Assembly: GCA_000004695.1 (NCBI GenBank)
Contig: CM000154.2
Coordinates: 2,464,001 to 2,528,000 of the forward strand
Reading direction: 5' to 3'
Source of the DNA: Dictyostelium discoideum
Lineage: Eukaryota
Length of the DNA: 64,000 nt
In this document: in pieces, positions 3,250-21,114 of the stretch
How the letters are laid out: the number at the start of each line of letters is the position of its first letter
How positions within the stretch are numbered: the stretch's first letter is position 1
The notes under the pieces: model-generated
The model's input: the letters and a program-made list of their open reading frames with translations, nothing else
What the model was told of the DNA's origin: nothing
Database searches by the model: none
Program-made: the position numbers and the translations under genes

Positions 3250-3617
3250 ATGAGTTCTCACAAAACCTCATCAAAGTCCTCATCATCAAATAGCTCAATG
3301 AGTATGATATTGGGATTTTCTAAATCATTAGAGAAAGGTAAAATATTAGACAATTAAATATAAATAATTATTTCAATTAATAATATTAATGTAAACACTT
3401 TTTTTTATTCTTTTTTATTTTAATTTTTTATTTAGGGTCTTTTGGTGTTTTGTATGCTATGATCAAAGGAAACACATTCCCAAGAATATTGACCATCTTA
3501 AGTTTGTTGATAGAGTTTTGTCGTATGTATAAAATAAAAATAACCGCGGGGTTGATGTTATTGATTTTTTTTTTATTTTTATTTTTATTTTTTTTTTTTT
3601 TTGTGATTTCCAAAATA

Positions 3618-3654
<37 letters not shown>

Positions 3655-6600
3655 CCCAAAATTTTTCATTTTCCAAAAGTCACATGCCCACTGACAAATT
3701 TTAATTAATTAACCCCTTAATCTGTTTCTATTTTAACCAATCACAATTTTCCAAAAAAAAATAAACCCAAACCCAAAAAAAAAAAAAAAAAAAAAATAAT
3801 AAAAAATTAATAATAAAATAATAAATAAAAAAATAATAATAAAAAATTTAATAAAAAATTAAATAATAATAATAAATAAAAATAAAATTACAATGAATAG
3901 AATTATCATCTTTTGGTTTTAAACATCAATATCCATGGGGTGGTGATGCTGGATAGTAAGTTTTTAATTTATTGTTATACCAAAATAATTAAATAGCTTT
4001 TTAACAAATTTTTTATTATATTATTATTATAATTATTATTACTTTTAAAAAATTATTAGTTATTTAAAAAAAATTATGTCACCAATTAGTCATCCATCAG
4101 ATGTTATTGGGTATACTGGTTTTACAATCTTTTTTTGGATTGTCATTGGTTTGATGTTATTAGGTTTTTTAAATATTTGGTATGTTGCATATCAATTTTA
4201 TCGTGGTAAAATTGCAAATATTTGGATTATTAGAACTCTTCGTTGGTTTGTTAGTACTACTGTAGCAGTTTTATTTATTCCAATCATTTCCTTACTTTTA
4301 ATTGGTTTGGATTGTGAGTACACAAGTAAAGGTGCTTTTCTTAGAAAGTTTGGTGGTGAAAATATTTATTGTTATAAAGGTGCAAACTTACCAATTGCAA
4401 TTATTTCAATTATTTTTATTATTTTTTTCAGTCAAGTTGGTTTTACATCAAGTGCAACCTATTATGAATATGATCCAAATGTTAAATCAAGATTTGCTAA
4501 ACCACATGCAAGAGTAAGATATTTTCTTTTTATTTTGTTTTATTTTTAAACTTTTTACTAATTTTTATTTTTTATTTTTATTATTAAATTATTTAGTTAG
4601 ATGTTATTATTTTATTAGTAAAACTTATTCTTGCATTATTAAATTCATTAGTTGATTTTTCACCATGGACAACATCAATTGTATTTTTTATTTTATCATT
4701 AGCATTAGTACTTGGATCAATTTTAGTTTTACCATATAATAATCAAAGATTAAATCAAATAAAGAGTGGATTTTATGCAACAGTATTTTGGGTATCATTT
4801 ATGACATTGGTAAATATGGGCATTAATGATGAAACATCACCAGCTACATGTTATGTTACAATTGTTGGTGTATTCTTTGCTTTTCCAGTTGGTTACTTTT
4901 CCAATAGATTATTTTATAAATTTTTATGTTCAAAGATTAACCAATTAAGAATTCCATCAACTTTATCAACTATGGATCTTCATGAAAATAAAGATAAAGA
5001 AAATGATAAATATGAAACTCATACTTCAAGAGTAACATGGGGTAGACAACCAGTAACATTGGGTAGTAAAAGACAAATTATACTTCCATTTTTCGGTAGT
5101 AAATTTGCATTTCCATTCTTTGTTGAAATCATGGCAAGAAAATTATTAAGAGGTAGTAATGAAGGTGTTTCAAGTAGTCCAATTGAATCAATTGAACGTG
5201 CAAATAATCTTTATCAATGTGGTTTACAATATTTCCCAAATTCAGATATATTATGGATGGCATATTGTAACTTTTTATTCACAGTTAGAAAAGATAGACA
5301 TATCGGTTATGCTGCATTAGAAAAACTTAGAAGAATGAATCCTTCTTTCGATGTTCGTTTCTTCATTTATCAACGTGATAAAGAAAGAGAACAAATTATG
5401 GATTCAGATTTACGTGGTCCAGAACATACAGGTAAAATTCAAGATTTCGTCAGTTACATGGAATTTAAAAAACTTTATTATGGTGCTAAAAGACATCATG
5501 TTAAATGTTTAACATATATTAAAAAGTTTTGGGGTTTATTATTACATGAAACAGTTGATCTTCATCGTTTATCAGATTTATCAGGTCGTATTGCAACAAC
5601 TGAAAATAAAGCAAATGAAAGTTATGAACGTTTGTTAGCACTCAATCCAAATTCAGTTAGAGTACTTCGTGATTATTCTCAATTCCTTGAAGAAGTTGTA
5701 AGAGATAAAGAATCATCATATAAATTACAAAAGAAAGCAGAAGCAATCGAAGACATCATGAGTAAAAGTCAAACAACTGATTTTAAAACAATTGATATTA
5801 AAAATTTAGAAGACTCTGATACAGAAGTTGATCAAGTATTAAAACAAGAACCAAATGCAATTCAATTGGCAAAGATTGATGCAGATATTGAAAAATCAGG
5901 ATCAAAATCAGGATCATCAAAATCAAAAGATGATTCATCAGAATCAAGTAGTTCATCAAAAGGTAGAAGTAATAAATATAAGGAATTCCAACAAAGTAAT
6001 GCAATTAACAAACTTTCATGGTTAATGATTGGTACAACTGCATGTTGTGTTATTTATTTAATTATTGTTTTGGTTGTATTCAGAGGATTGGCAGTTAAAC
6101 ACACCAATGCATATCAAGGTATTTTATCAATTACAGATTGTGCAACTGAAGCAGTTTCAATTGCAATCAATTTAAATACTATGCAAGCATATGCATTAGG
6201 TGCTGGCTTAAGTTTCCCAATTGAGGCAGCTGTTGAACAAATTAATATTTTAAAAGCTCAAAACGATAGAAGTTTAATTATAATGAAAAATATCCATGAT
6301 GCAATTTATTGGGGTGAAGGTAATCCAGCTGCATATGTTGGTGATAATTTATCCAAATTAAAAGATAGAAATGGTATTGATGTTTTCGATATTGGTTCAA
6401 CCATTTTCACATTTGATCAATTCAATCGTTCAAACACCGTTTTAGAAAATAAAAGAATGATTCAAATTTATAGTGAACCATCAGTCAATATGTCAATTTT
6501 GGTTGCACCAAAAGGGACCAATACAACTACTCATTATTCTCAAACTTATAACGCTTGGAAAGCTGGCAATGCTTTCATTGAAAGTGCAATCATAGCCAAT

Positions 6601-8115
6601 AAATTATCAGTTTATGATTTCATAAATGGTTCCACAAATCCAGATTTGAAGTTTGTAATTTTAAATGCACCAAGCAATATTCCAGATATTTATTTAAAAA
6701 TACAACAAGCTTATATAGATTCTTTGGTTGACAATATTATGAACACTTTGAATACGATCCTTTACGTTTGGTTGGCCATTTTTGGTTTTCTTGTTGTTAT
6801 TGGTGCTGTTTTATTCCGTCCAATTGTTAGAAAGATTTCTCGTGAAAAGATTCGTACACTTGTATTATTTTCATTGGCACCAAGAGATGTGGTAATTAAA
6901 CTTTCAACAAAGAAAATTAAAATGGTTAGTTTAGATAGTGGTAGTGAACGTGATAATCTTTTCGATACAACTGACGATGATGATGGACGTGATGATCACG
7001 AACATCTTCACCATGATAGTGATAATACCCCCACAGGAGAAAGAAAAAAGAACGACGATATTGTATCAATTAATGTTACTGATCCAACTGGTGCAACTCT
7101 CTCTTTATCTCCATCCAATCCAAGAAAACATTCTCAATCCTCAGATAATGAAGCAGAAAACCGTTCATCCAACAAAAGCAACAATCAATTTGGTGATCGT
7201 CGTCCATTAATGGATTCAACTGGTGTTTTAGCATCGACAACTTTAAATAATAGAAAATCCAATGAAGAAAAACCAAAATCAGAAGAAGAAAGCAGAGATG
7301 AATATAATAAGAAATATGGTTGGGATGGAAAGACTAAAAGAAATTTAAATAAGAAATCACTCAGATCAGTATTGAGACGTCTTCATTGGTCTTATGTTTT
7401 AGCAATCTTTTTATTATTTGGTTTTATTACAATGGGTATTTGGGTATCATTTACAGTTGTATTTAATAACTCACAATCTGGCTATACCTTGGGTAAAAGT
7501 AGTACAAGAGCATTAAACAGTCGTATCATTAATTTCTATGTAGCTGAACTATATACATTTGATAATGACGCAAACGAACAAAAAGCAATGGACGCTGTAA
7601 CCCATTTACAAGAGAACCATCAATCATTACCATACCTTGAAGAGGTTAGACCATTGATGGAAGGCTCCTATGGTTGTTGGATGCTTAATAAAAGTGATTG
7701 TCTTACAAGAGATTCAATTTATTATTCTGATGTCAGTGTTGGTCTTGACTGGTTAATCGATCAATATGCAAAACACTGTGTATCTCTATTCAACACTGAT
7801 TCTGCAACTCTTGGAACAAGTCCAGAGTTGGCCTGGTTACAAGCAATTGGCTCAAACGTAATGTTCCAAGGCTTGGATACTGCAACTTTTACTTATTTCG
7901 AATACTACCTCTCACTACAAGATTGGGCCACAAAAGTTTTGACTTCAGTTTTAGCTGTTAGTTGTGTTTTATTAGTAATTATATATCTTGTATTATTTAG
8001 ACCATTTATGAATCATCTTAGGATTCAACATATTCATACTTTGGCCTTATTACGTTTAGCTCCTGACGATATTAGATTCATGGAAGTTAGTGATAAAGTT
8101 ATTGACGAAGATTAA
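3250..8115 (+). CDS. Paralogue A of a large (~1400 aa) multi-pass membrane protein with central TPR-like soluble domain (possibly 'tiny macrocysts' Tmc-like family), 5 exons
   Basis: Exons ~3250-3337, 3436-3522, 3901-3955, 4060-4513, 4597-8115 (the last contains the 1104-aa ORF 4801-8115). Splice phases are consistent (1,1,2,0). All exon lengths are identical to paralogue B (88, 87, 55, 454 nt). There are hydrophobic TM segments in exons 4-5 and again at the C-terminus, and a TPR/HAT-like block (CGLQYFPNSDILWMAYCNFLFTVRKDRHIGYAALEKLRRMNPSFDVRFFIYQ...). The family assignment is from memory only. Confidence 0.7.
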
Positions 8116-8300
8116 AAAAAATTAAAATGAAAAAGAAAAGGATTTTTTTGTGTATATTAAAAAAAAAAGAAAAAAAAAAAAAAGAAAAAGAAAAAAAAAA
8201 ACTACAACTTTGTAAAGTAAAAAAAAAAAAAAAAACCTTTAATAAAAATCTAAAACATTTCTATTTATTTAATATTTTTTGTTGAGGTTGATAATTTGAG

Positions 8301-8332
<32 letters not shown>

Positions 8333-8425
8333 CAACCCCTATTTTTACAAATCTGATTTTTAAATTCCTCTTCGGAAATTTAAAAACATTTTTTTTTTTT
8401 TTAGTTGGAGTTAAAAATCTTTTTG

Positions 8426-8492
8426 ATTTTCATGAAATTAAAAAAAAAAAACTGTTTAAAACTTAAACAGTTTCAATTTCATGAAATATTTA
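8426..8492. repeat. Nested imperfect palindrome/hairpin in the A-B intergenic spacer
   Basis: tttcatgaaatt-A10-aactgtttaaaac|ttaaacagtttcaatttcatgaaat. The inner stem is aaactgtttaa/ttaaacagttt and the outer stem is ttcatgaaatt/aatttcatgaa. Confidence 0.6.
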
Positions 8493-8596
8493 CTATCAAA
8501 AAATTTTATTTTTAAATTATTAATCATGTTGCGCAATAGTGACGGATATGTCATTGAAAAAAAAAATTTTTAACAAAAATAAGTATTTTGGGTTTA

Positions 8597-8634
<38 letters not shown>

Positions 8635-9125
8635 AAAATAAAAATTTAATCAGTAAATTTTAAAAATATTAAAATTGTCACCATTAAAATGCCAAAAGGC
8701 CAAAGTTTTTCAGCTAATTAATTACCATGTACAAAAAAAAAAAAAATGTTTACACCCAATCAGTCAAAATAAAATTTCTCATATTTCACTTACCGATTCG
8801 AAAACAGTTATTTTAAAAACCATGACAAAAAAAAAAAATTTCAAAAAAAAAAAATTAAAAAAAAACTGTAGATATTTTTTTGATGCCCAACCAAATCTCA
8901 TTCTCAACTTATCTATAAAAAACCACTATCGTCTTTAATGTTTTATTTTTTTTTTTATTTTATTTTTAATTTTTTCTTTTTTTCTTTTTTTTTTTTTTTT
9001 AAAAAAAAATATACCTATAAATTTCTTTTTTTTAATTTTTTTTATTTTTAACAAATCAAAACTATATTTTACCTTTGACACGGTTCTTATATATAATATA
9101 TAATATTCTACTCATTGTTGGGTTT

Positions 9126-9128
<3 letters not shown>

Positions 9129-9183
<55 letters not shown>
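9129..9183. repeat. poly(A) homopolymer (~55 nt) in promoter of paralogue B
   Basis: An uninterrupted A run. Similar runs at 2601-2645, 8299-8330 and 9348-9400, and T runs at 3621-3655 and 28827-28872. Confidence 0.9.
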
Positions 9184-9186
<3 letters not shown>

Positions 9187-9230
9187 ATTTGATTAGGAGA
9201 TAATATCTCTTTTCAAAAAAAAAGAAAAAA

Positions 9231-9347
9231 ATGTCATCAACTAAATCAGGTTCCTCAAAATACTCATCTGGAAGTTCCATTAGTTTAATAATGGGTTTTT
9301 CCAGATCATTAGAAAAAGGTAATAATTAGTTTTTAAGAGGGAAGTTC

Positions 9348-9403
<56 letters not shown>

Positions 9404-12400
9404 AAATTACTAAAACCAAAAAAATATTTATTAAAAAAAAAAAAAAAATACAGGATCATTTGGTGTTTTGTATGCAATGATCAAAGGAAATACATTCCCA
9501 AGAATATTAACTATCTTAAGTATGCTAATTGAGTTTTGCCGTATGTATAAATATAATTTTAATTTTTTTTTTTTTTTCTTTTTCACTTTTTTTTTAGTTT
9601 TCAATTTTTTTTTTTTTTTTTCAATGTTAGAGTTTTAATGAATAAAATTATTTAACTCTTTTAAATTTTATATCAATGAAATAGAATTATCATCATTTGG
9701 TTTTAAACATCAATATCCATGGGGTGGAGATGCTGGATAGTAAGTATTAATTTTTTTTTTATTATTATTTTAAAAAGAAAAATATTAATACTAACATTGT
9801 ATTAATTTTAAAAAGTTATTTAAAAAGAATTATGTCACCAGTAAGCCATCCATCAGATGTATTTGGTTACTTGGGATTTACAATTTTATTTTGGATTGCT
9901 GTTGGTTTATTGATTTTGGGTTTTTTAAATATTTGGTATGTTGCATATCAATTTTATCGTGGTAAAATTGCAAATATTTGGATTATTAGAACTCTTCGTT
10001 GGTTTGTAAGTTTCTCAGTGGCTGTATTATTTATTCCAATCATTTCCTTACTTTTAATTGGTTTGGATTGTGAAGGATCAAGTGAAGGTACCATCTTAAG
10101 AAAGTTTGACAATGAAACCATTCAATGCTTTAGAGGTGCAAATTTACCAATTGCCGTAATTTCAATTATTTTAATTGTAGTTTTCAGTATTGTTGCCTTT
10201 ACATCTAGTGCAACCTATTATGAATATGATACAAATGTTAAATCAAGATTTTCAAAACCACATGCAAGAGTAAGAAATATTATTATTATTATTATTATTT
10301 CTTTTTTAAATAATTTTATTAATTTTTATATATTTTTTTTTTTTTTTATAAAAAATATTTTTTAGTTTGATGTAACAGTTTTATTTGCAAAATTTGTGTT
10401 TGCATTTTTCAATTCATTAGTCGATTTTGTACCATGGTTAACATCAATAACATTTTTTGTTTTTATGGTGATATTAACTTTTGGATCAATTATTGTTTTA
10501 CCATATAATAATCAAAGATTAAATCAAGTTAGAAGTGGATTCTATACAGTTGTTCTTTGGGTATCATTTATGACATTGGTAACTATGGGTATTAATGATG
10601 AAACATCACCAGCTACATGTTATATTACAATTGTTGGTGTATTCTTTGCTTTTCCAATTGGATTTTTCTCAAATATGTTTTATTTCAAATGGTTATCATC
10701 AAAAGTTTCCGATATTCAAATTTTAAATCAAAGTCCAAGTATGGATCTTAAAGATGCCAATAAAAAAGGTAAACGTAATAGTGTTGAAAAAGAATCATCA
10801 CCAACATCAAAAGTAACATGGGGTAAACAACCAATTACATTGGGTAGTAAAAGACAAATCATTTTCCCATTCTTTAAAAAGAAGTTTGTAATGTCATTCT
10901 TTGTTGAAATCATGGCAAGATCAATATTAAATAATAACAATGAAGGTGTTTCAAGTAGTTCAAATGAGTCAATTGAACGTGCAAATAATCTTTATCAATG
11001 TGGTCTTCAATATTTCCCAAATTCAGATTTATTATGGATGGCATATTGTAACTTTTTATTCACAGTTAGAAAAGATAGACATATTGGTTATGCTGCATTA
11101 GAAAAACTTAGAAGAATGAAACCATCATTCGATGTTCGTTTCTTCATTTATCAACGTGATAAAGAAAGAGAACAAATTATGGATTCAGATTTACGTGGTC
11201 CAGAACATACAGGTAAAATTCAAGATTTTGTCAGTTACATGGAATTTAAAAAACTTTATTATGGTGCTAAAAGACATCATGTTAAATGTTTAAATTATAT
11301 TAAAAGATTTTGGGGTCATTTATTACATGAAACAGTTGATCTTCATCGTTTATCAGATTTATCAGGTCGTATTGCAACAACTGAAAATAAAGCAAATGAA
11401 AGTTATGAACGTTTGTTAGCACTCAATCCAAATTCAGTTAGAGTACTTCGTGATTATTCTCAATTCCTTGAAGAAGTTGTAAAAGATAAAGAATCATCAT
11501 ATAAATTACAAAAGAAAGCAGAAGCAATCGAAGATATCATGAGTAAAAGTCAAACAACTGATTTTAAAATTAGTGATATTAAAGCAATTGATTCCGATGA
11601 GGATGATATTGAAAAAACTCTTCAAGAACCAACAGCAATTCAATTGGCAAAGATTGATGCAGATATTGAAAAATCAGGATCAAAATCAGGATCATCAAAA
11701 TCAAAAGATGATTCATCAGAATCAAGTAGTTCATCAAAAGGTAGAAGAGGCAAATATAAGGAATTCCAACAAAGTAATGCAATTAACAAACTTTCATGGT
11801 TAATGATTGGTACAACATGTTGTTGTATTATATTTTTAATTGTTGTATTGGTTGTATTCAGAGGATTAGAAGTTAAACATACCAATGCATATCAAGGTAT
11901 CATTTCAATCACAGATTGTGCCAATGAAGCAGTTCAAATGGGTATGCATTTAAATGCAATGCAAGCATATGCTTTGGTTGCTGGTGTTGGTAATAATACA
12001 GTTGAAGCATCATTAATTGAAATTGCTAGAAGAAGAGCTTTGGTTAAAAGAGGCATTATCATTATGAAGAATATTCATGATGCAATTTATTGGGGTGAAG
12101 GTAATCCAGTTAGTTATGTTGGTGATAATTTATCCCAATTGAAAGCAAGAGATGGTTATGATATTTTCGATATTGGTTCAGTAATTTTCACATTTGATCA
12201 ATTCAATCGTTCAAGTACTTTATTGGATAATAAACAAATGATTGAACTTTACAGTCAGCCATCAGTCAATATGTCGGTTTTAGTTGCACCACCAGGTTCT
12301 AATACAACTTCACTCTATACTCAAACTTATAACGCTTGGAAAGCTGGTAATGCTTTCATTGAAAGTGCAATGCTTGCTAGTGATGTTACATTTGATGAGC

Positions 12401-12820
12401 TTAGATACTCTGTCAACCAAAATCCAAATTTCAAATTTGTAACAATTAACGCCCCAGTAATTATGCCAGATATTTATAATAAGGTTCAAACAGCTTATAT
12501 CGATTCATTGGTTTCCGATATCACTGGTACATTAGATGCAATTCTCTATACTTGGTGTGGTATTTTCGCTGTACTCTTTTTAATTTGTGCCGTTTTATTC
12601 CGTCCAATTGTTAGAAAGATTTCTCGTGAAAAGATTCGTACACTTGTATTATTTTCATTGGCACCAAAAGATGTTGTTGTTAAACTTTCAACAAAGAAAA
12701 TTAAAATGGTTAGTTTAGATAGTGGTAGTGAACGTGATAATCTTTTCGATACAACAGATGATGATGGACGTGATGATCATCTTGGAGAAGATGACAACAA
12801 TATTCAAACCCCAGTTGGTG

Positions 12821-12854
<34 letters not shown>

Positions 12855-13932
12855 TAACAATAATAATGGTTCAATATCATCAAACGTTACAAAATCAGAT
12901 GGAGAAATTGGTTCAGATGGTGTTCGTAGTAGTAGTGGTAGTAATGTTTTAAATACATCATCACCATATAGAGATAGACGTCCATTAATGGATTCAACTA
13001 GTGTTTTGGCATCAACAGCAACATTAAATAATAGAAATGTAAGATTACAAGCTAAAGATGAAGAAATAACTAATGGTGGTGGTGAAAGAAAAGGTAGTGA
13101 TGCAACAAGAACAGCTCTTTCAGAGGATAAAAAATATGGTTGGGATGGAAAGAGTAAAAGAAATTTAAATAAGAAATCACTTAAATCAATTTTAGGTCGT
13201 CTTCATTGGAGTTATATCCTTGCTACATTCTTATTGTTTGGTTTCATCACTATGGGCATTTGGGTAACATTCACTGTCGTATTTAATAATTCTCAATCTG
13301 GTTATACATTGGGTAAAAGTTGTTCAAGATCATTGAATAGTCGTGTCATCAATTATTATGTTGCCGAATTGTATACCTATAGTCAATATGTAAGTACTCA
13401 AAATATGGTTGATGCAATCACAGAATTACAAAGCAGTCATCAATCATTGCCATACCTTGAAGAGGTTAGACCATTGATGGAAGGTTCATACGGTTGTTGG
13501 GCACTTAATAAAAGTACTTGTCTTCCACCATCCTCTATGTACTATGAAGAAGTTAATAGTGGATTGGATAGAGTTGTTGACAGTTTGGCAAAGAAAGCAA
13601 TTAATTTGGCTTATACCGATCAAGCTGCCTTATTAGATAGTCCAGATTTACAATGGTTCTTAGCACTCATCGATTATATTTTCATTGGTCTTGACACTGC
13701 AACCTTCACTTATTTCGACTATTTCTTAGAAAAACAAGAATGGGCAAATACAGTTTTAACCGCTATTCTATCTGTTAGTTGTGTTATTCTATTGGTAGTT
13801 CATGTAGTATTATTTAGACCATTTATGAATCATCTTAGAATTCAACATATTCATACTTTAGCCTTATTACGTTTAGCTCCTGATGATATTAGATATATGG
13901 AAGTTAGTGATAAAGTTATTGATGAAGATTAA
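9231..13932 (+). CDS. Paralogue B of the large multi-pass membrane/TPR-like protein (tandem duplicate of 3250-8115), 5 exons
   Basis: Exons ~9231-9318, 9454-9540, 9685-9739, 9816-10269, 10366-13932. It has the same exon architecture and phases as A. Protein identity with A ranges from ~65% to ~98% depending on segment, and it carries a poly-N insert (N~25) near 12830. Confidence 0.7.
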
Positions 13933-14123: not shown

Positions 14124-15050
14124 TTAATAATTAAAAAATAAAAATGAAGGGTCACAATAAAAAACTAAACAACCATTTGGATACGAGGGTATTGAAGTTA
14201 AACTATAACCCTTTGGACAACTTGGGGCAATTGAAGAACTACATTTTTCTGGTGATATTGGAGCGCATTCAAAGAAAATATAACAATGATTAAAACTTCT
14301 GACATATGTTGCAATTAAACCAGATACACATCTAATTTCTTGAATTTTCTTTGGACAGTTATTTGAATTTGTTAAACTAATAAATAAATTATCAATATTA
14401 TATTCATATTTTGGTTTCCAATCTACATTTTTTATAATTTCATAATTTTCATCATAATATTCAGAGTTTGTTTCATTATTTGTTATGGTTACTGAATTTA
14501 CAGTAAATACGGAATTTCCAGTATTAATTAAATATTCCATCCAATTTGTTTGAATATTTTTAACATTTTTTGGATAATCTTGATATACAAGTGTTTTAAA
14601 TCTATTTTTTTCATCATTTTCATTTAATTGAGGTACTAATAAATTATGAGGATTACCCAAAGTATAAAATTGGGTATCTTTTGTTAAATTGAAAGTTTTA
14701 CCAGGCATTGGCATTAATCTATAGATATTGTGAGCTTCTGCAGTATCAACATCGTTTTGATAATCTCTATTTAAAATACCTCTAAAAACTATATGATAAG
14801 GTGGAGCATTTCTAATTTTATTTTCATTTACAACACCAATATCATCTTGTTGATTAATTTCTGAAACATAAATTTCCATCTCTTCTTTACCTGTATTTAA
14901 TTCCTTTACAAAATAACCACCACATCCAGGTTTTTCATAATTATCACATCTTCTTGTATCAGTTCTTGCTGCATAGTATTTAAAATCATCATTACATTTA
15001 ATTTTAAATATTAAATTAAATAAAATTAAAATAATAAATTTTATTTTCAT
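14124..15050 (-). CDS. Secreted cysteine-rich protein of unknown function (308 aa, single exon)
   Basis: N-terminal signal peptide MKIKFIILILFNLIFKIKC. The codon usage is coding-like. The C-terminal region has 10+ Cys (CPKKIQEIRCVSG...CYIFFECAPISPEKCSSSIAPSCPKGY..GCLVFYCD). No family recognised. Confidence 0.55.
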   Translation of the reverse strand: MKIKFIILILFNLIFKIKCNDDFKYYAARTDTRRCDNYEKPGCGGYFVKELNTGKEEMEIYVSEINQQDDIGVVNENKIRNAPPYHIVFRGILNRDYQNDVDTAEAHNIYRLMPMPGKTFNLTKDTQFYTLGNPHNLLVPQLNENDEKNRFKTLVYQDYPKNVKNIQTNWMEYLINTGNSVFTVNSVTITNNETNSEYYDENYEIIKNVDWKPKYEYNIDNLFISLTNSNNCPKKIQEIRCVSGLIATYVRSFNHCYIFFECAPISPEKCSSSIAPSCPKGYSLTSIPSYPNGCLVFYCDPSFLFFNY

Positions 15051-15409: not shown

Positions 15410-18400
15410 TTATTTTGTAAATTGTTTAATTTTTTCTTGTAAGGAATTAATTTGTAGCGAGAGAGAAGGAGTTAAATTTAATTCTTTTTGTAATAATATA
15501 TCAGATAAACTGAAATTTTTTAAATTAAATTGAACAACAGCAGAATAAAAATTAGTTAAGGATAGTTTTGAATTAATGGTTGATGATTCCTCTAATAAAT
15601 TTAAAGCATTCTTCATATCATTTGTGAATTGTTTTAAATTATTATTTGTTAATTTACTTGAACCAATAATTAGAATACCTTTTAATAATTTTATAACTGG
15701 ATTATCTAAATAATTATTATTATTTAAATTTTCTTCTAATAATTTTAATGAATCTTTAAATTTCTTTTGAATACAATAAATTCTAATAATTTTCGATATT
15801 GTTGTTAAAATTAAACCATTATTATTATTATTATTATAATTATTGTTATTGGTTGTTTGTTGTTTTAATACTAAAAGTGATCTATTTAAACAAAGTAAAG
15901 AAGCATCTAATTGATCATTACTTTGATAAATATCACAAAGATTATGATAGATTGGAATTGAATTTGGTTCTAATTTTAATGCATCCTTTAAAATTGATAA
16001 TGCTTTAACTTTATCGCCTTGTTTTAAAAATTTCTTTGCTTCTAGTGATAATAATACAGATTTCTTTTCATTTGTATAATTTGTTTGTTTTTGATAATTT
16101 GAAATTAGTTTATCAAATTCAGCAATATCATCAGTGGTACCACTATCACCTTCACTTGTAATTGAAAGTGCTAATTTAAATTCAAGTTCAATTAAAATTT
16201 GTTGAAATTTAAATTCTTCTGTTATTGTTGTTGTTGTTGTTGTTGTTTTTGTTAACAAATATTGTACAACATTCCAACATGATTTAGTTGATTCCCAATC
16301 CTCTTTATTATCAGTATAAAGTGAACGCCAATAAAGTAAATTTTGAAGATGAACCCAAGGTTGAATATTATTATTAGTAGTTGATAATGGATTTGAATGA
16401 ATGATACGTTTGATTATAACAATGGCATTATCTAAACATTTTGTCCAAGGTGATTGTAAATCATAAAGATTTGCTTTTGCAATGATTTCCAATTCTTTAA
16501 TAGTTGGTGGTTGTAATACTTTGTGATCAGGACCAACACTTAATTGACCCATACCAGAATATTCTTGACTTTGTTTCTTATTTAATGAATGATTTAATAA
16601 TGATAATGGTAAATTACATGGATCATTATTTTCACTATTACTATTACTATTACTATTATTAATGAAATATTTCATTTCTAAATCAGCTAAACTTGTCCAA
16701 CCAATTGGCTCTAATGGGAATAAATGAATTAATTTTTGTAATTGTTTTCTGGCTTCTTCAATTTCATTATTTAATAAATGAATTTTTGATAATAATAAAT
16801 AGCTATTGGATTCCAATTGTTCAACTGTTGTTTGTAATTTAATTAAAACATTCTTTGCTAAATCATTTTTACCACAATCAATATAGATTGCAGCTAAATA
16901 ATACCATGATTTATAGAATCTTTTGTCAATTGTTATAATTGCTTCTAAAGTTTTAACAATTGTATCAATTTGTTGTTTTTTACCACTATTATTATTATTA
17001 TTACAAGTATATTGAATCTTTGCTAATGTAAATAATAAATTTTGTTTTCTAATGGTTGCAGTTTCTAATGATTTTGGAATTTGTGAAATTGATTTCTTCA
17101 TTGCATCAATTGATTCATTTAATTTATTTAATTTACAATAAATTAATGAAACCAATTCAAATAATATACTATTTGATAATGATGGTTCTGTTGTTTGAGT
17201 TGTTGTAATATATGGTTTAATTGTTTCTAATGCTTCATCAAATTTACCTAAATAATATTGAGTTCTTGATAAATTAATTTTAACATATTTTAATTTTTCA
17301 TCATTTGAAAATTCAATACCATCATTTAATGGTTTATCAGAGAATAATATTGAACCAATTGAACAACTTGAATTATTATTATTTAATGTAATCTTTGATT
17401 CATTATCATTATCATTATTTTTAATGATGGTTTTACTACTGTTGCTACTATTTGATAATAAATTTAAAGCAGATTTAAAATATTTTTCAGAATTTTCATA
17501 ATCATTTTGATGGCTGTAAACTAAAGCTAATGAATTATTTCCTTCAATTGAATTTGGATTTAATTCAACGTATTTGTATAATACTGAATAACTAGTTTCA
17601 CTATAACCTTCTAATAATGATGTTATACCATAACCTAATAACCCTTGACCAATTGGTGATGATTCTAATGCATTATCAATATAATTATAATCTTCTCTAC
17701 CTGTTGAATTATTATTATTATTATCATTATTATTATTATTATTAATATTTTTATTACTTGATTTAACTTCATTAATTAAACCTTGCAAAGACCAAGAAAT
17801 AACAGAATCAATATTATTATTTTTGGCAATCATTAAAGATTTATCAGATTGTTCAATGAAACCATATTCAAAATATAATAAAGTTAAATTATTATATGGT
17901 TCAGATTTTGAAGAATCTAATTGAATCGATCTAATTAGGGCATGTTGACTTTGGGCAGGGAATTTGTCCATTAAAACAACACCTAATAAATTCCATAACA
18001 TTGGGTCTGATGGTGATAAATTTAAAGCTTCAACAACACATTTAATTGATGATTTTAATAAATTCTCTGTTTCTTCTTTTGTAACTTTTAAATTTTTCTC
18101 TTGTTGTTGCTTTCCTTGTTGTTTTAAATAATTTTTAAAAATAATATATTGATTATAATAACCAATTGATAAATCTTGTAATGAATGGGAATTTGAATGA
18201 ATTCTAACACAATTAAAATATGCATTTGAAGATTGTTTTGATTTTTCAATTAAATAATCATAATTATTATTATTATTACTATTACTATTGTTATTATTAT
18301 TATTTGGTAAATTTAAGAAATAACTTGAAATATCAGCATATAATCTCCATAATGAATGAAAATTATTTTCTTTTTCTAATGCAATTTTAATTGAAGATTC

Positions 18401-21114
18401 AGCTAATTCGAGATGAATTAAAGATTGACGAAAATTTCTAAATTTATATTGTTCAATAGATAATTGTAATAAACATTCAGCTTTACCTTTTAATGAAGGA
18501 ACATTATTTTCCAATTGTTTTAAAACTCTATCATATTCATTGATAGCATCATCATAGAGACCTAAAGTTTTTGATAATGTTGCAATTTGAAAATTGATAT
18601 CAGTTGCAATACGATTTTCATTATCTAAAATCTCTTCTGCCTTTTTCAAAGATTTTAAAGCTGCAACATATTTGAATTGTCTACGATATGCTTCGGCCAA
18701 TGTACGCCAATAACTCTCATTCAAAGGCTCACCCTTAATTGCATTCAATAGGGATACTACGGAATTATGTATATCTTTATTATCCATTTGATAGATTGCA
18801 AGTCTATAGAATGCCCATGAACATTTTATAACATTAATTGGGAATCTTTTAATTTGTTTAGCTGATAAACAAAAATCGGTAATCTCTTTATACAATGACA
18901 TCACCAATGAAGTTTGACCACTCTCTGCATAGATTTCACCCAACTCAAATCCTGCTTCACCATTTAAAATATCCAATTGTAAACTTTTTTGATAACATTT
19001 CTTTGATCTCTCTTTTTGACCAATCATTTTATAAAGTGTACCTAATTTTGCAAACGTATCAGAATGATTTGAATTTAATTTTGCTGATTTTAAAAATTGT
19101 TGAATTATAAATGAACAATTATCATTATTATTATCATTATTATTATTATTTTCAATTTTATTTAATTCCATTAAAACTAAACCATAAACATAATAATTTA
19201 AATAATTATTAGCAGTTTCACCATTTAATTCAATTATTTCTTTTAAATTATCTTTACTTTTAATTAATGATTCTTTTGATTCTTTTAATAAAATATCAAT
19301 CCAAATTAAATAAATTTTTGATAATTCAATAATTTTCTTATTTTGATTATTATTTTGATTATTATTTTGATTATTATTAATAATTAATTGAAATAATTCT
19401 TTTGATTTTTTATAATCTTTAATTGAATAAAAATTTAATTTACTTTGTGAAAATGTTAAATAATTAAAATGAATTGGGAATTTATTAATTAATGATTCTA
19501 ATAATGATGATGCCAATTCAAAATTACAATTGAATGATAATGATTCAACTAAAATCAATTGAAGTTTAATGAAAATATTATTAAAATAATTGGCACCACC
19601 AACTGATCTTTGTTTTTGCTCATAGACAATCATTGACTTTTTAACTATATCTCTAACACGTTCATGATTTTCAACTTTTAAATACCATTTTGATAATGCT
19701 AAATAACCTAATAATGATTCGGTACTACCTGAATTTGAAAATCCTTTCTCTATTAATTGTTTACTTTGTTCACTATAATCTTTTAATTTAAAAACTTTAT
19801 AAAATCCTAACCCTATCCAACCTAATCCCCTATTTGCATATTTATTTGTTAAAATATTTGAAATTTCATTAATTTTTTCATATAATTCATTATTATTCTT
19901 TGATTCTTGATCATCATCTTCATCATCATCATCATCATTAAAATTAAATTCTTCTTCTAATAAATTTATTAAATTTTCTAATGAATAAATTGGTGTTGAT
20001 AACATTTCATTCATTCTTTCACAATTTTCATAAATTTCTTTATAAAGTTGTTTTTGTTTTTCTTCATCTTTATTCTCTTCATTACTATAAATTCTTCTTT
20101 TACCAATTAATATTTGAATGAAATGAGTATAAATTCTTATCATTTGTTCATTTGTTAAAATATTTAAATTTATTTTTGTTAATAATTCTTCATAAACTTT
20201 TAACTATATATATATATAGTTATAAAAAATAAATAAATTAATATTAATATTACTCTATATATATATATATTGGTTTTTAATTTTTTTGGAAAAAAAAAAA
20301 AAAAATCAAATACAAACATTAAAATTATTAATTAATGATTTATTTAATTCAAATTCAATTTTATCTCTTTCTTGTTTTTGTTCAGGTGTATGTTGAATTG
20401 CACCTAATACATGTAATTTTGAGTAATCTACAATTGGTATATTCTTCTCACGTAATTTTTCATCGATTTTAGTTTTTAAAGTGTTTAAATAGTATTGATA
20501 ATTTGCATCTTCAAATTTTTCTAATAATTTAATTCTATCTATTTTTGATGATTCACTATCATTTTCTCCATCATCACTACTTTTTTCATTTTCAAATAAA
20601 ATTGGTGAAATCAAATCAATTGTAGTTTTATAATCTTTTAAAAAGTAACTAATTTCAATTAATCTAAATACCAATTCTTTTTTTTTTTGTTTATCTGTTG
20701 TTAATGGAATTAATTCTTTTAATGTGTTTGATAATTTATCATTTTCATTTGTTTTATTATATAATTCTAGTAAACCCTAATTTATTTTATTTTATTTTAT
20801 TTTATTTTATTTTAAATTTTAATATTTATAAGTTTATTTTGTTTCAAAGAAAAAAGGAAAAAGAAAAAAAAAAAAATTTAACTAATTACCCTTAATGGAA
20901 CTGGTGAATTCTGTATTTTTAATGCAGCAATATATGATTTTTCAGCAGCAGCTAAATTATTTAAATTAAAATTTGAAACACCTAAAAAAAGATGAATCAT
21001 GAAATTTTGATCATCATATTGTACTATCTCATTACAATTTTCTAATGCTGTCTTATAATCTTTTTTATCAATAGCCTCCCTTGTCTCTTTTAATTTACTT
21101 TTAATATAGTCCAT
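15410..21114 (-). CDS. ski3: SKI3/TTC37-like superkiller TPR-repeat protein (~1825 aa, 3 exons)
   Basis: Exons (minus strand) ~20890-21114, 20318-20776, 15410-20203. Donors are GTAATT and GTTTGT; acceptors are tag|GGTTTA and tag|TTAAAAG. N-terminus MDYIKSKLKETREAIDKKDYKTALENCNEIVQYDDQNFMIHLFLGVSNF..AAAEKSYIAALKIQ parallels human TTC37 [71 protein letters not shown]. Numerous TPR-like repeats follow throughout the long exon. Confidence 0.75.

Follow-up and report, generated by a model that had tools for sequence, protein, structure and literature searches.

Short-tract ectopic gene conversion very probably homogenises the HAT/TPR segment of an old tandem pair of Tmc-family genes in Dictyostelium

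A 64,000-nucleotide (nt) stretch of Dictyostelium discoideum DNA (contig CM000154.2, positions 2,464,001 to 2,528,000), referred to here as the window, carries two adjacent membrane-protein genes, A (DDB_G0289205) and B, which are nearly identical over some internal stretches and strongly diverged over others. What process leaves a gene pair with such a patchwork? The original prediction ascribed it to ongoing interallelic or ectopic gene conversion. Comparison of the pair with its relatives indicates that the HAT/TPR segment of an old A/B pair has very probably been homogenised repeatedly by short-tract ectopic gene conversion, with a third gene, TmcC, taking part in the exchange.

Both gene models were built by hand and verified by translation (see Table), and they confirm the predicted tandem arrangement of five-exon membrane-protein genes. 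As had also been predicted, exons 1 to 4 agree in length (88, 87, 55 and 454 nt in both genes) and in phase. Every intron is of the GT-AG type, and exon 5 is 3519 nt long in A and 3567 nt in B. The genes are arranged head-to-tail with 5,981 nt between their starts and an intergenic gap of 1,115 nt, in an AT-rich region of 18% to 35% GC, and they show the adjacency, shared strand and common exon-intron structure of tandem duplicates. The translation of A exactly matches the D. discoideum AX4 protein DDB_G0289205 in the protein collection, and the five-exon model applied to the D. citrinum and D. purpureum loci gives their deposited proteins exactly. The B protein is 95% identical to D. citrinum ACTFIU_002855. 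The exact B protein has no entry in a collection of 15 billion proteins, in which the neighbouring A is present under AX4 accessions. Neither of two homology searches with B brought up an entry from D. discoideum sensu stricto, and the second yielded no 'TmcB' name either. In a tblastn search of the window, A and B were the only Tmc copies.

Overall, A and B are identical at 72.6% of amino acids (1014 of 1396) and 78.8% of nucleotides. The main block of high identity lies at A 5161-5790, which matches B 10942-11571 at 96.5% (22 differences in 630 nt); its existence had been recognised, but its B coordinates had been given as 10931-11560, a shift of 11 nt that reduces the identity to 27.6% if taken literally. 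Two other blocks had been put at about 97-100% identity: A 6808-6971 and B 12592-12755 are indeed 97.6% identical, but the last 100 nt reach only 94%. The longest exact runs shared by A and B are 163, 125 and 101 nt, and the divergent segments have 45% to 78% amino-acid identity per 40-codon window. Where both genes encode the same residue, the codons differ in 0-3% of cases in the windows spanning A 5353-5712 and in 40-53% across much of the C-terminal third. Introns and flanks match only in A/T low-complexity sequence, as anticipated for the introns, and the unit of exchange must therefore be smaller than the whole gene.

To place these differences in time, orthologous loci were compared from D. 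citrinum (L001, L006), D. firmibasis (L002, L004) and D. purpureum (L003), together with a second D. discoideum lineage, ACTFIR (L007, L009), and D. discoideum TmcC (L005). Copies are labelled by species (dis, cit, fir, pur) and paralogue (A, B, and C for TmcC). A, B and C form three orthologue groups common to D. discoideum, D. citrinum and D. firmibasis. Because A and B are 73% identical within each of these species and orthologues are 90-95% identical, the A/B duplication must be older than the split of the three species. One study puts the split between AX4 and D. firmibasis at 50-100 million years (PMC12745789). High nucleotide identity between A and B is consequently not evidence of recent duplication.

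The core of the homogenised region was defined as alignment columns 451-630 (A 5203-5742), which encode the HAT/TPR-domain segment, and synonymous divergence (dS) was estimated by the Nei-Gojobori method. Core dS was 0.072 for disA-disB, 0.090 for citA-citB and 0.047 for firA-firB. Between A or B and C of the same species it was 0.03-0.20; citA-citC, at 0.195, was the one within-species pair outside 0.03-0.12. Orthologues from different species gave 0.15-0.46, and any copy against D. purpureum gave 0.7-1.0. Outside the core, paralogues had dS values of 0.41-0.67. Uniform synonymous divergence along the genes would have spoken for purifying selection on the protein; instead, dS for disA-disB rose from 0.072 in the core to 0.643 elsewhere, and only 7 of 105 synonymous comparisons differed in the core against 292 of 676 in the remainder (Fisher P=3.8e-15). 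The drop in the core was significant for within-species paralogues (P=3.8e-15, 6.9e-13 and 2.7e-16) and not for the orthologue pairs disA-citA (P=0.2), disB-citB (P=0.4) and citA-firA (P=0.74).

The comparison with orthologues that had been suggested gave a matching result: the core clusters by species and the flanks cluster by orthologue. Neighbour-joining trees of columns 451-625 recovered species clades containing all three paralogues (bootstrap support of 89% for D. discoideum, 93% for D. citrinum and 95% for D. firmibasis), with 0% support for orthologue clades. Trees of columns 1-430, 741-985 and 1201-1440 recovered orthologue clades with 79-100% support, and species clades with 0%. The table of variable sites contains stretches of synonymous variants that occur in a single species but in all three of its copies, A, B and C. 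A GENECONV-style permutation, the type of check originally proposed, was carried out on 419 silent polymorphic sites in codons with an invariant amino acid. It identified a concordant run of 31 sites for disA-disB (A 5449-5800; P<=0.0002) and one of 39 sites for disB-disC (P<=0.0002). The D. firmibasis pairs gave P=0.012-0.058, and none of the cross-species control pairs was significant. Independently produced assemblies from four lineages showed the segment-restricted pattern. In the haploid D. discoideum this exchange takes place between different loci; of the two alternatives originally named, 'ectopic' therefore holds and 'interallelic' does not.

Similar nucleotide sequences could also be maintained without any exchange, by selection on codon bias, mRNA structure or an embedded regulatory or antisense element. 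The GC content at third codon positions (GC3) is slightly lower in the core (0.10-0.12 versus 0.17-0.18 elsewhere), dis-fir orthologue dS is reduced there, and some other high-identity blocks, such as A 4163-4317, reflect constraint only; all three observations fit such selection. It is nevertheless most unlikely as the explanation of the core. Between-species orthologues retain near-normal core dS (0.15-0.46), three to six times the within-species paralogue values, and constraint is unable to yield species-specific synonymous variants common to paralogues. The more distant paralogues D (L010) and E (DDB_G0276733, L011) of the same genome provide an internal control. Their protein conservation in this domain is comparable with that of A, B and C, with a proportion of nonsynonymous differences (pN) of 0.03-0.07, yet the proportion of synonymous differences (pS) is 0.06-0.09 within the A, B and C group and 0.27-0.35 when D or E is compared with any of the three. 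The low synonymous divergence of A, B and C can thus be put down neither to protein constraint nor to codon usage or an RNA element; it appears to be due to exchange among these three genes in which D and E do not take part. GC-biased gene conversion was considered separately and rejected, as core GC3 is not raised and is, if anything, lower.

Exchange could instead have taken the form of unequal crossing-over or repeated partial re-duplication of the tandem unit, which the geometry of direct tandem repeats 6 kb apart permits. We regard this as very unlikely, given that the homogenised tracts are short (~90-550 nt) and internal, with coding sequence of 65-75% identity on both flanks and unrelated introns, and that copy number and the A-then-B order are constant in all lineages examined. 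The participation of TmcC argues in the same direction. The longest exact runs are 314 nt between B and TmcC (B 10978-11291), 182 nt between A and TmcC (A 5449-5630) and 163 nt between A and B (A 5539-5701), compared with at most 98 nt between orthologues of different species, and the D. discoideum core accordingly reads as a patchwork of A, B and TmcC. In two D. discoideum assemblies ~59-66 kb separate the end of B from TmcC, which is on the opposite strand and ~16 kb outside the window on its right-hand side; a crossover with an inverted copy ~66 kb away would invert the interval rather than patch it. Near-identical paralogous segments are also a known cause of consensus errors, and assembly might have merged or interchanged reads of the paralogues in their conserved segment; most differences between the ACTFIT assembly and the window are indels (28 gaps in 6.9 kb). 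Such an artefact is extremely improbable, since the same segment carries different species-specific variants in the window, in two further D. discoideum assemblies, in two from D. citrinum and in those of D. firmibasis and D. purpureum, and a paralogue-specific island is retained within the tract in every assembly.

Short-tract ectopic conversion would account for these patterns as follows. Over ~0.55-0.9 kb, sequence would pass non-reciprocally between the loci A, B and TmcC, with smaller patches transferred at lower strength, and the remainder of each gene would diverge independently. Homologous recombination (synthesis-dependent strand annealing) would mend a double-strand break or gap in one copy by copying from a paralogue. 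Strand invasion would need long, near-identical homology, which only the TPR segment provides, through protein constraint; each conversion would restore that homology and make the process self-sustaining, and the diverged flanks and unrelated introns would terminate the tracts. At the level of the sequences themselves, the evidence points to non-independent evolution of short internal tracts at three loci with copy number and order unchanged.

Several points weigh against this reading. Conversion events were not directly observed, and the sequences do not tell donor from recipient. None of the D. citrinum pairs was individually significant in the run-length test (P=0.08-0.26), so that the claim of conversion in this species rests on the tree and the site patterns. 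The dS of dis-fir orthologues is also somewhat lower in the core (odds ratio 0.25-0.44), so that part of the effect comes from slower synonymous change or from uneven sorting of differences between the ancestral paralogues. The TmcC sequence comes from a closely related assembly (99.3% identical over gene A) and not from the window's own strain. Finally, the smaller tracts, namely tracts 2 and 3, the possible small tract and the C-terminus, are based on few sites.

Table. Positions in the window of genes A and B and of the candidate conversion tracts.
Feature	Position	Strand	Remarks
Gene A (DDB_G0289205)	3250..8115	+	TmcB/TmcC-family multi-pass membrane protein, 1400 amino acids
Gene A exons	3250-3337, 3436-3522, 3901-3955, 4060-4513, 4597-8115	+	
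Gene B	9231..13932	+	tandem paralogue of A, 1416 amino acids
Gene B exons	9231-9318, 9454-9540, 9685-9739, 9816-10269, 10366-13932	+	
Tract 1a, gene A	5203..5472	+	HAT/TPR domain; pairs with B 10984-11253
Tract 1a, gene B	10984..11253	+	pairs with A 5203-5472
Paralogue-specific island, gene A	5473..5562	+	90 nt between tracts 1a and 1b; pairs with B 11254-11343
Tract 1b, gene A	5563..5742	+	C-terminal half of TPR_TmcB domain; pairs with B 11344-11523
Tract 1b, gene B	11344..11523	+	pairs with A 5563-5742
Tract 2, gene A	5857..6090	+	Ser-rich linker and next membrane helix; pairs with B 11635-11868; signal weaker or older
Tract 3, gene A	6799..6971	+	juxtamembrane segment VLFRPIVRKISREKIRTLVLFSLAP; pairs with B 12583-12755; modest support
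Possible small tract, gene A	4804..4893	+	pairs with B 10573-10662
Poly-Asn run, gene B	12823..12867	+	15 codons, low-complexity cytosolic linker

The homogenised core resolves into two tracts separated by an island. In tract 1a, third-position divergence was 0.041 between A and B within species and 0.141 between orthologues, and 15 variable sites were of the species type and one of the paralogue type. With a distance of 0.000 here, disC is nearer to disB than the ACTFIR allele of B is. Tract 1b, which contains the 163-nt exact run, had corresponding divergences of 0.006 and 0.054 to 0.14, with 13 species-type sites and no paralogue-type site. The island between them shows the reverse pattern: five sites were paralogue-type and one species-type, and divergence was 0.100 between A and B within species versus 0.052 between orthologues. 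It encodes CLTYIKKFWGL in A and CLNYIKRFWGH in B and in D. purpureum, and it is preserved in every assembly compared. Selection against converted alleles may have kept it. The island is of the B type in the C gene of D. citrinum and of the A type in the remaining C genes, a difference that itself appears to record a patch passed from B to C or from C to B.

Outside the core the signals are smaller. Tract 2, in which A 5857-6038 is 97.8% identical to B, had nine species-type and three paralogue-type sites and a third-position divergence of 0.117 within species against 0.224 between A and B of different species. For tract 3 the divergences were 0.121 within and 0.172 between species (four sites versus two), and for the possible small tract 0.122 and 0.294 (seven sites versus two). 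The last 90 nt of A give a weak conversion-type signal, and support for the C-terminal block is modest. Other blocks behave differently. A 4163-4317 has 94% nucleotide identity, but at third positions its within-species and between-species divergences are equal (both 0.231); in exons 2 and 3 the two divergences are likewise equal. Such blocks reflect protein constraint only. The mosaic therefore has two causes, of which conversion is one; the attribution of the whole pattern to conversion stands for the HAT/TPR core and fails for A 4163-4317 and for exons 2-3.

Part of the exchange can be dated relative to the split between the two D. discoideum lineages. The ACTFIR genes are about 4-5% diverged from those of the window across the locus. 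At six sites, both A and B of one lineage share one state and both genes of the other lineage share another, and five of the six fall in columns 477-686. Strain differences common to two or three paralogues, TmcC included, make up 5 of 30 in A 5100-6100 compared with 3 of 109 elsewhere (Fisher P=0.012), and core dS between A and B (0.072) is close to that between the two D. discoideum lineages (0.059). These shared strain variants and the similarity of the two dS values indicate that some conversion occurred after the lineages split. On this scale, the word 'ongoing' in the original prediction is justified.

Both proteins appear to belong to the TmcB/TmcC ('tiny macrocysts') family of multi-pass membrane proteins, whose HAT/TPR domain lies on the cytosolic side. 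The Pfam domain TPR_TmcB (PF25474) was identified at amino acids 496-618 of A (E=6.5e-46; 155.8 bits) and 500-622 of B (162.5 bits), well above the gathering cut-off of 27, and is preceded in both by a weak HAT-repeat match. Hydropathy suggests ~11 membrane segments, with ~7 helices before the TPR_TmcB domain and four after it. Over 99% of its length, TmcC (UniProt Q5FBC4) is 76% identical to A and 68% identical to B, and its exon structure is that of A and B. A and B thus share with the family the domain, the full-length similarity to TmcC and the exon structure, although A is annotated merely as a hypothetical protein; the literature searched yielded no experimental characterisation of either gene, and so nothing on the family's role in macrocyst (sexual) development or cAMP signalling for these two loci. 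The study of gamete-enriched genes by Muramoto et al. in 2005 (Mech Dev 122:733), which appears in the reference list of PMC4910948, is reportedly the origin of the Tmc names.

The process itself is textbook, and the locus offers a clean example rather than a new kind of biology. The human gamma-globin pair is the standard case of concerted evolution by interlocus gene conversion. Published accounts describe mammalian gene pairs that have converted for over 100 million years (PMC2720389), a case of interlocus conversion in Caenorhabditis paralogues (PMC3966223) and conversion with islands of divergence in the GOT1 paralogues of Tigriopus (PMC3728101). As in known interlocus conversion, paralogues here resemble each other more than orthologues do over defined stretches, homogenisation extends to synonymous sites, the short tracts are bounded by diverged sequence and enclose an island of divergence, and the time involved is tens of millions of years. 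Unlike those cases, the genes belong to another family in a haploid social amoeba of ~22% GC, three loci are involved, one of them ~66 kb distant and inverted, GC3 shows no rise, and at least three Dictyostelium species show parallel homogenisation of this one domain. Diversity at the Dictyostelium allorecognition locus tgrB1/tgrC1 arises from recombination and a hypermutable hotspot (PMC12745789). That system resembles the present one in being a Dictyostelium membrane-protein family with local duplication and recombination, seen in the same new genome assemblies, but exchange among A, B and TmcC removes paralogue diversity in one domain. No prior report of gene conversion in the Tmc family was found in the literature searched.

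The locus thus provides a well-controlled Dictyostelium case of ectopic gene conversion with tracts of ~0.1-0.55 kb. Since TPR segments group by species, trees and dates of Tmc paralogues built on the TPR domain will mislead. The contrast between a homogenised TPR module, a protected island and freely diverging membrane and luminal parts hints at shared and paralogue-specific regions. One tentative extension, which we consider unlikely, is that selection favours homogenisation of the TPR segment, with A, B and TmcC needing an identical HAT/TPR module and the 30-codon island acting as a specificity patch. If so, the shared module could bind one common partner or assemble the paralogues together, and the island substitutions T/N, K/R and L/H (A amino acids 538-546), unconverted in every species, would give each paralogue its specificity. 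The locus would then be a natural map of shared and private function in an uncharacterised, sexual-cycle-linked membrane-protein family.

Gene order around the three partners differs between species. D. citrinum and D. firmibasis have the genes on a single strand, arranged as TmcC-PLAC8-A-B. In the D. discoideum arrangement, ~59-66 kb separate A-B from a downstream group made up of Endotoxin_N, PLAC8 and the inverted TmcC (L005, L008, L009). Relative to the other two species, D. discoideum thus has an inversion of ~70 kb, with one breakpoint just upstream of A.

The core and the flanks also differ in species topology. The core tree (columns 451-625, A 5203-5727) groups ((discoideum, firmibasis), citrinum) and the flanks group ((discoideum, citrinum), firmibasis); in the core, D. 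citrinum copies retain states common to D. purpureum. It is likely that conversion fixed ancestral paralogue differences in different directions in different species. The tandem pair of D. purpureum (L003 9934-14562 and 15881-20506), pur1 and pur2, clusters together in every tree segment, and may stem from an independent duplication or from whole-gene concerted evolution. This pair has its own homogenised stretches, including a 212-nt identical run at columns 226-296, with pS of 0-0.07 in columns 181-315, a region partly different from the D. discoideum tracts.

Intron 2 is 354-407 nt long in A orthologues versus 144 nt in B. In gene A this intron is A/T-only apart from a block at 3660-3740, AAAAGTCAC...TTAATTAATTAA...TTAATCTG, which is conserved between D. 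discoideum, D. citrinum and D. firmibasis in their A genes and may be a regulatory element; a search of the window with the intron-2 sequence found nothing. TmcC of D. firmibasis lacks intron 2, its exons 2 and 3 being fused into one of 142 nt (L004 3193-3334), and the other family members examined retain the intron. The poly-Asn run of B, originally put at about 25 residues, counts 15, and B orthologues have Asn runs of varying length at the same place.

Several deposited models in the family appear to be wrong. In the AX4 TmcC model 12 residues are translated intron 1 sequence, ~40 residues at the junction of exons 3 and 4 are missing from three strain models, exons 1-3 are absent from the D. 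firmibasis B model, and GKIQDFVSYMEF is missing from the paralogue D model in ACTFIW, at a point where an indel in the DNA disrupts the frame. A tRNA scan of the window found none. Downstream of B, the window contains long open reading frames at 14124-15050 and 15410-20143, both on the minus strand. Synteny with the D. citrinum, D. firmibasis and ACTFIR loci places a DUF6748 protein and a ~1,830-amino-acid protein there on the minus strand, and gene order 3' of B is kept across three species.

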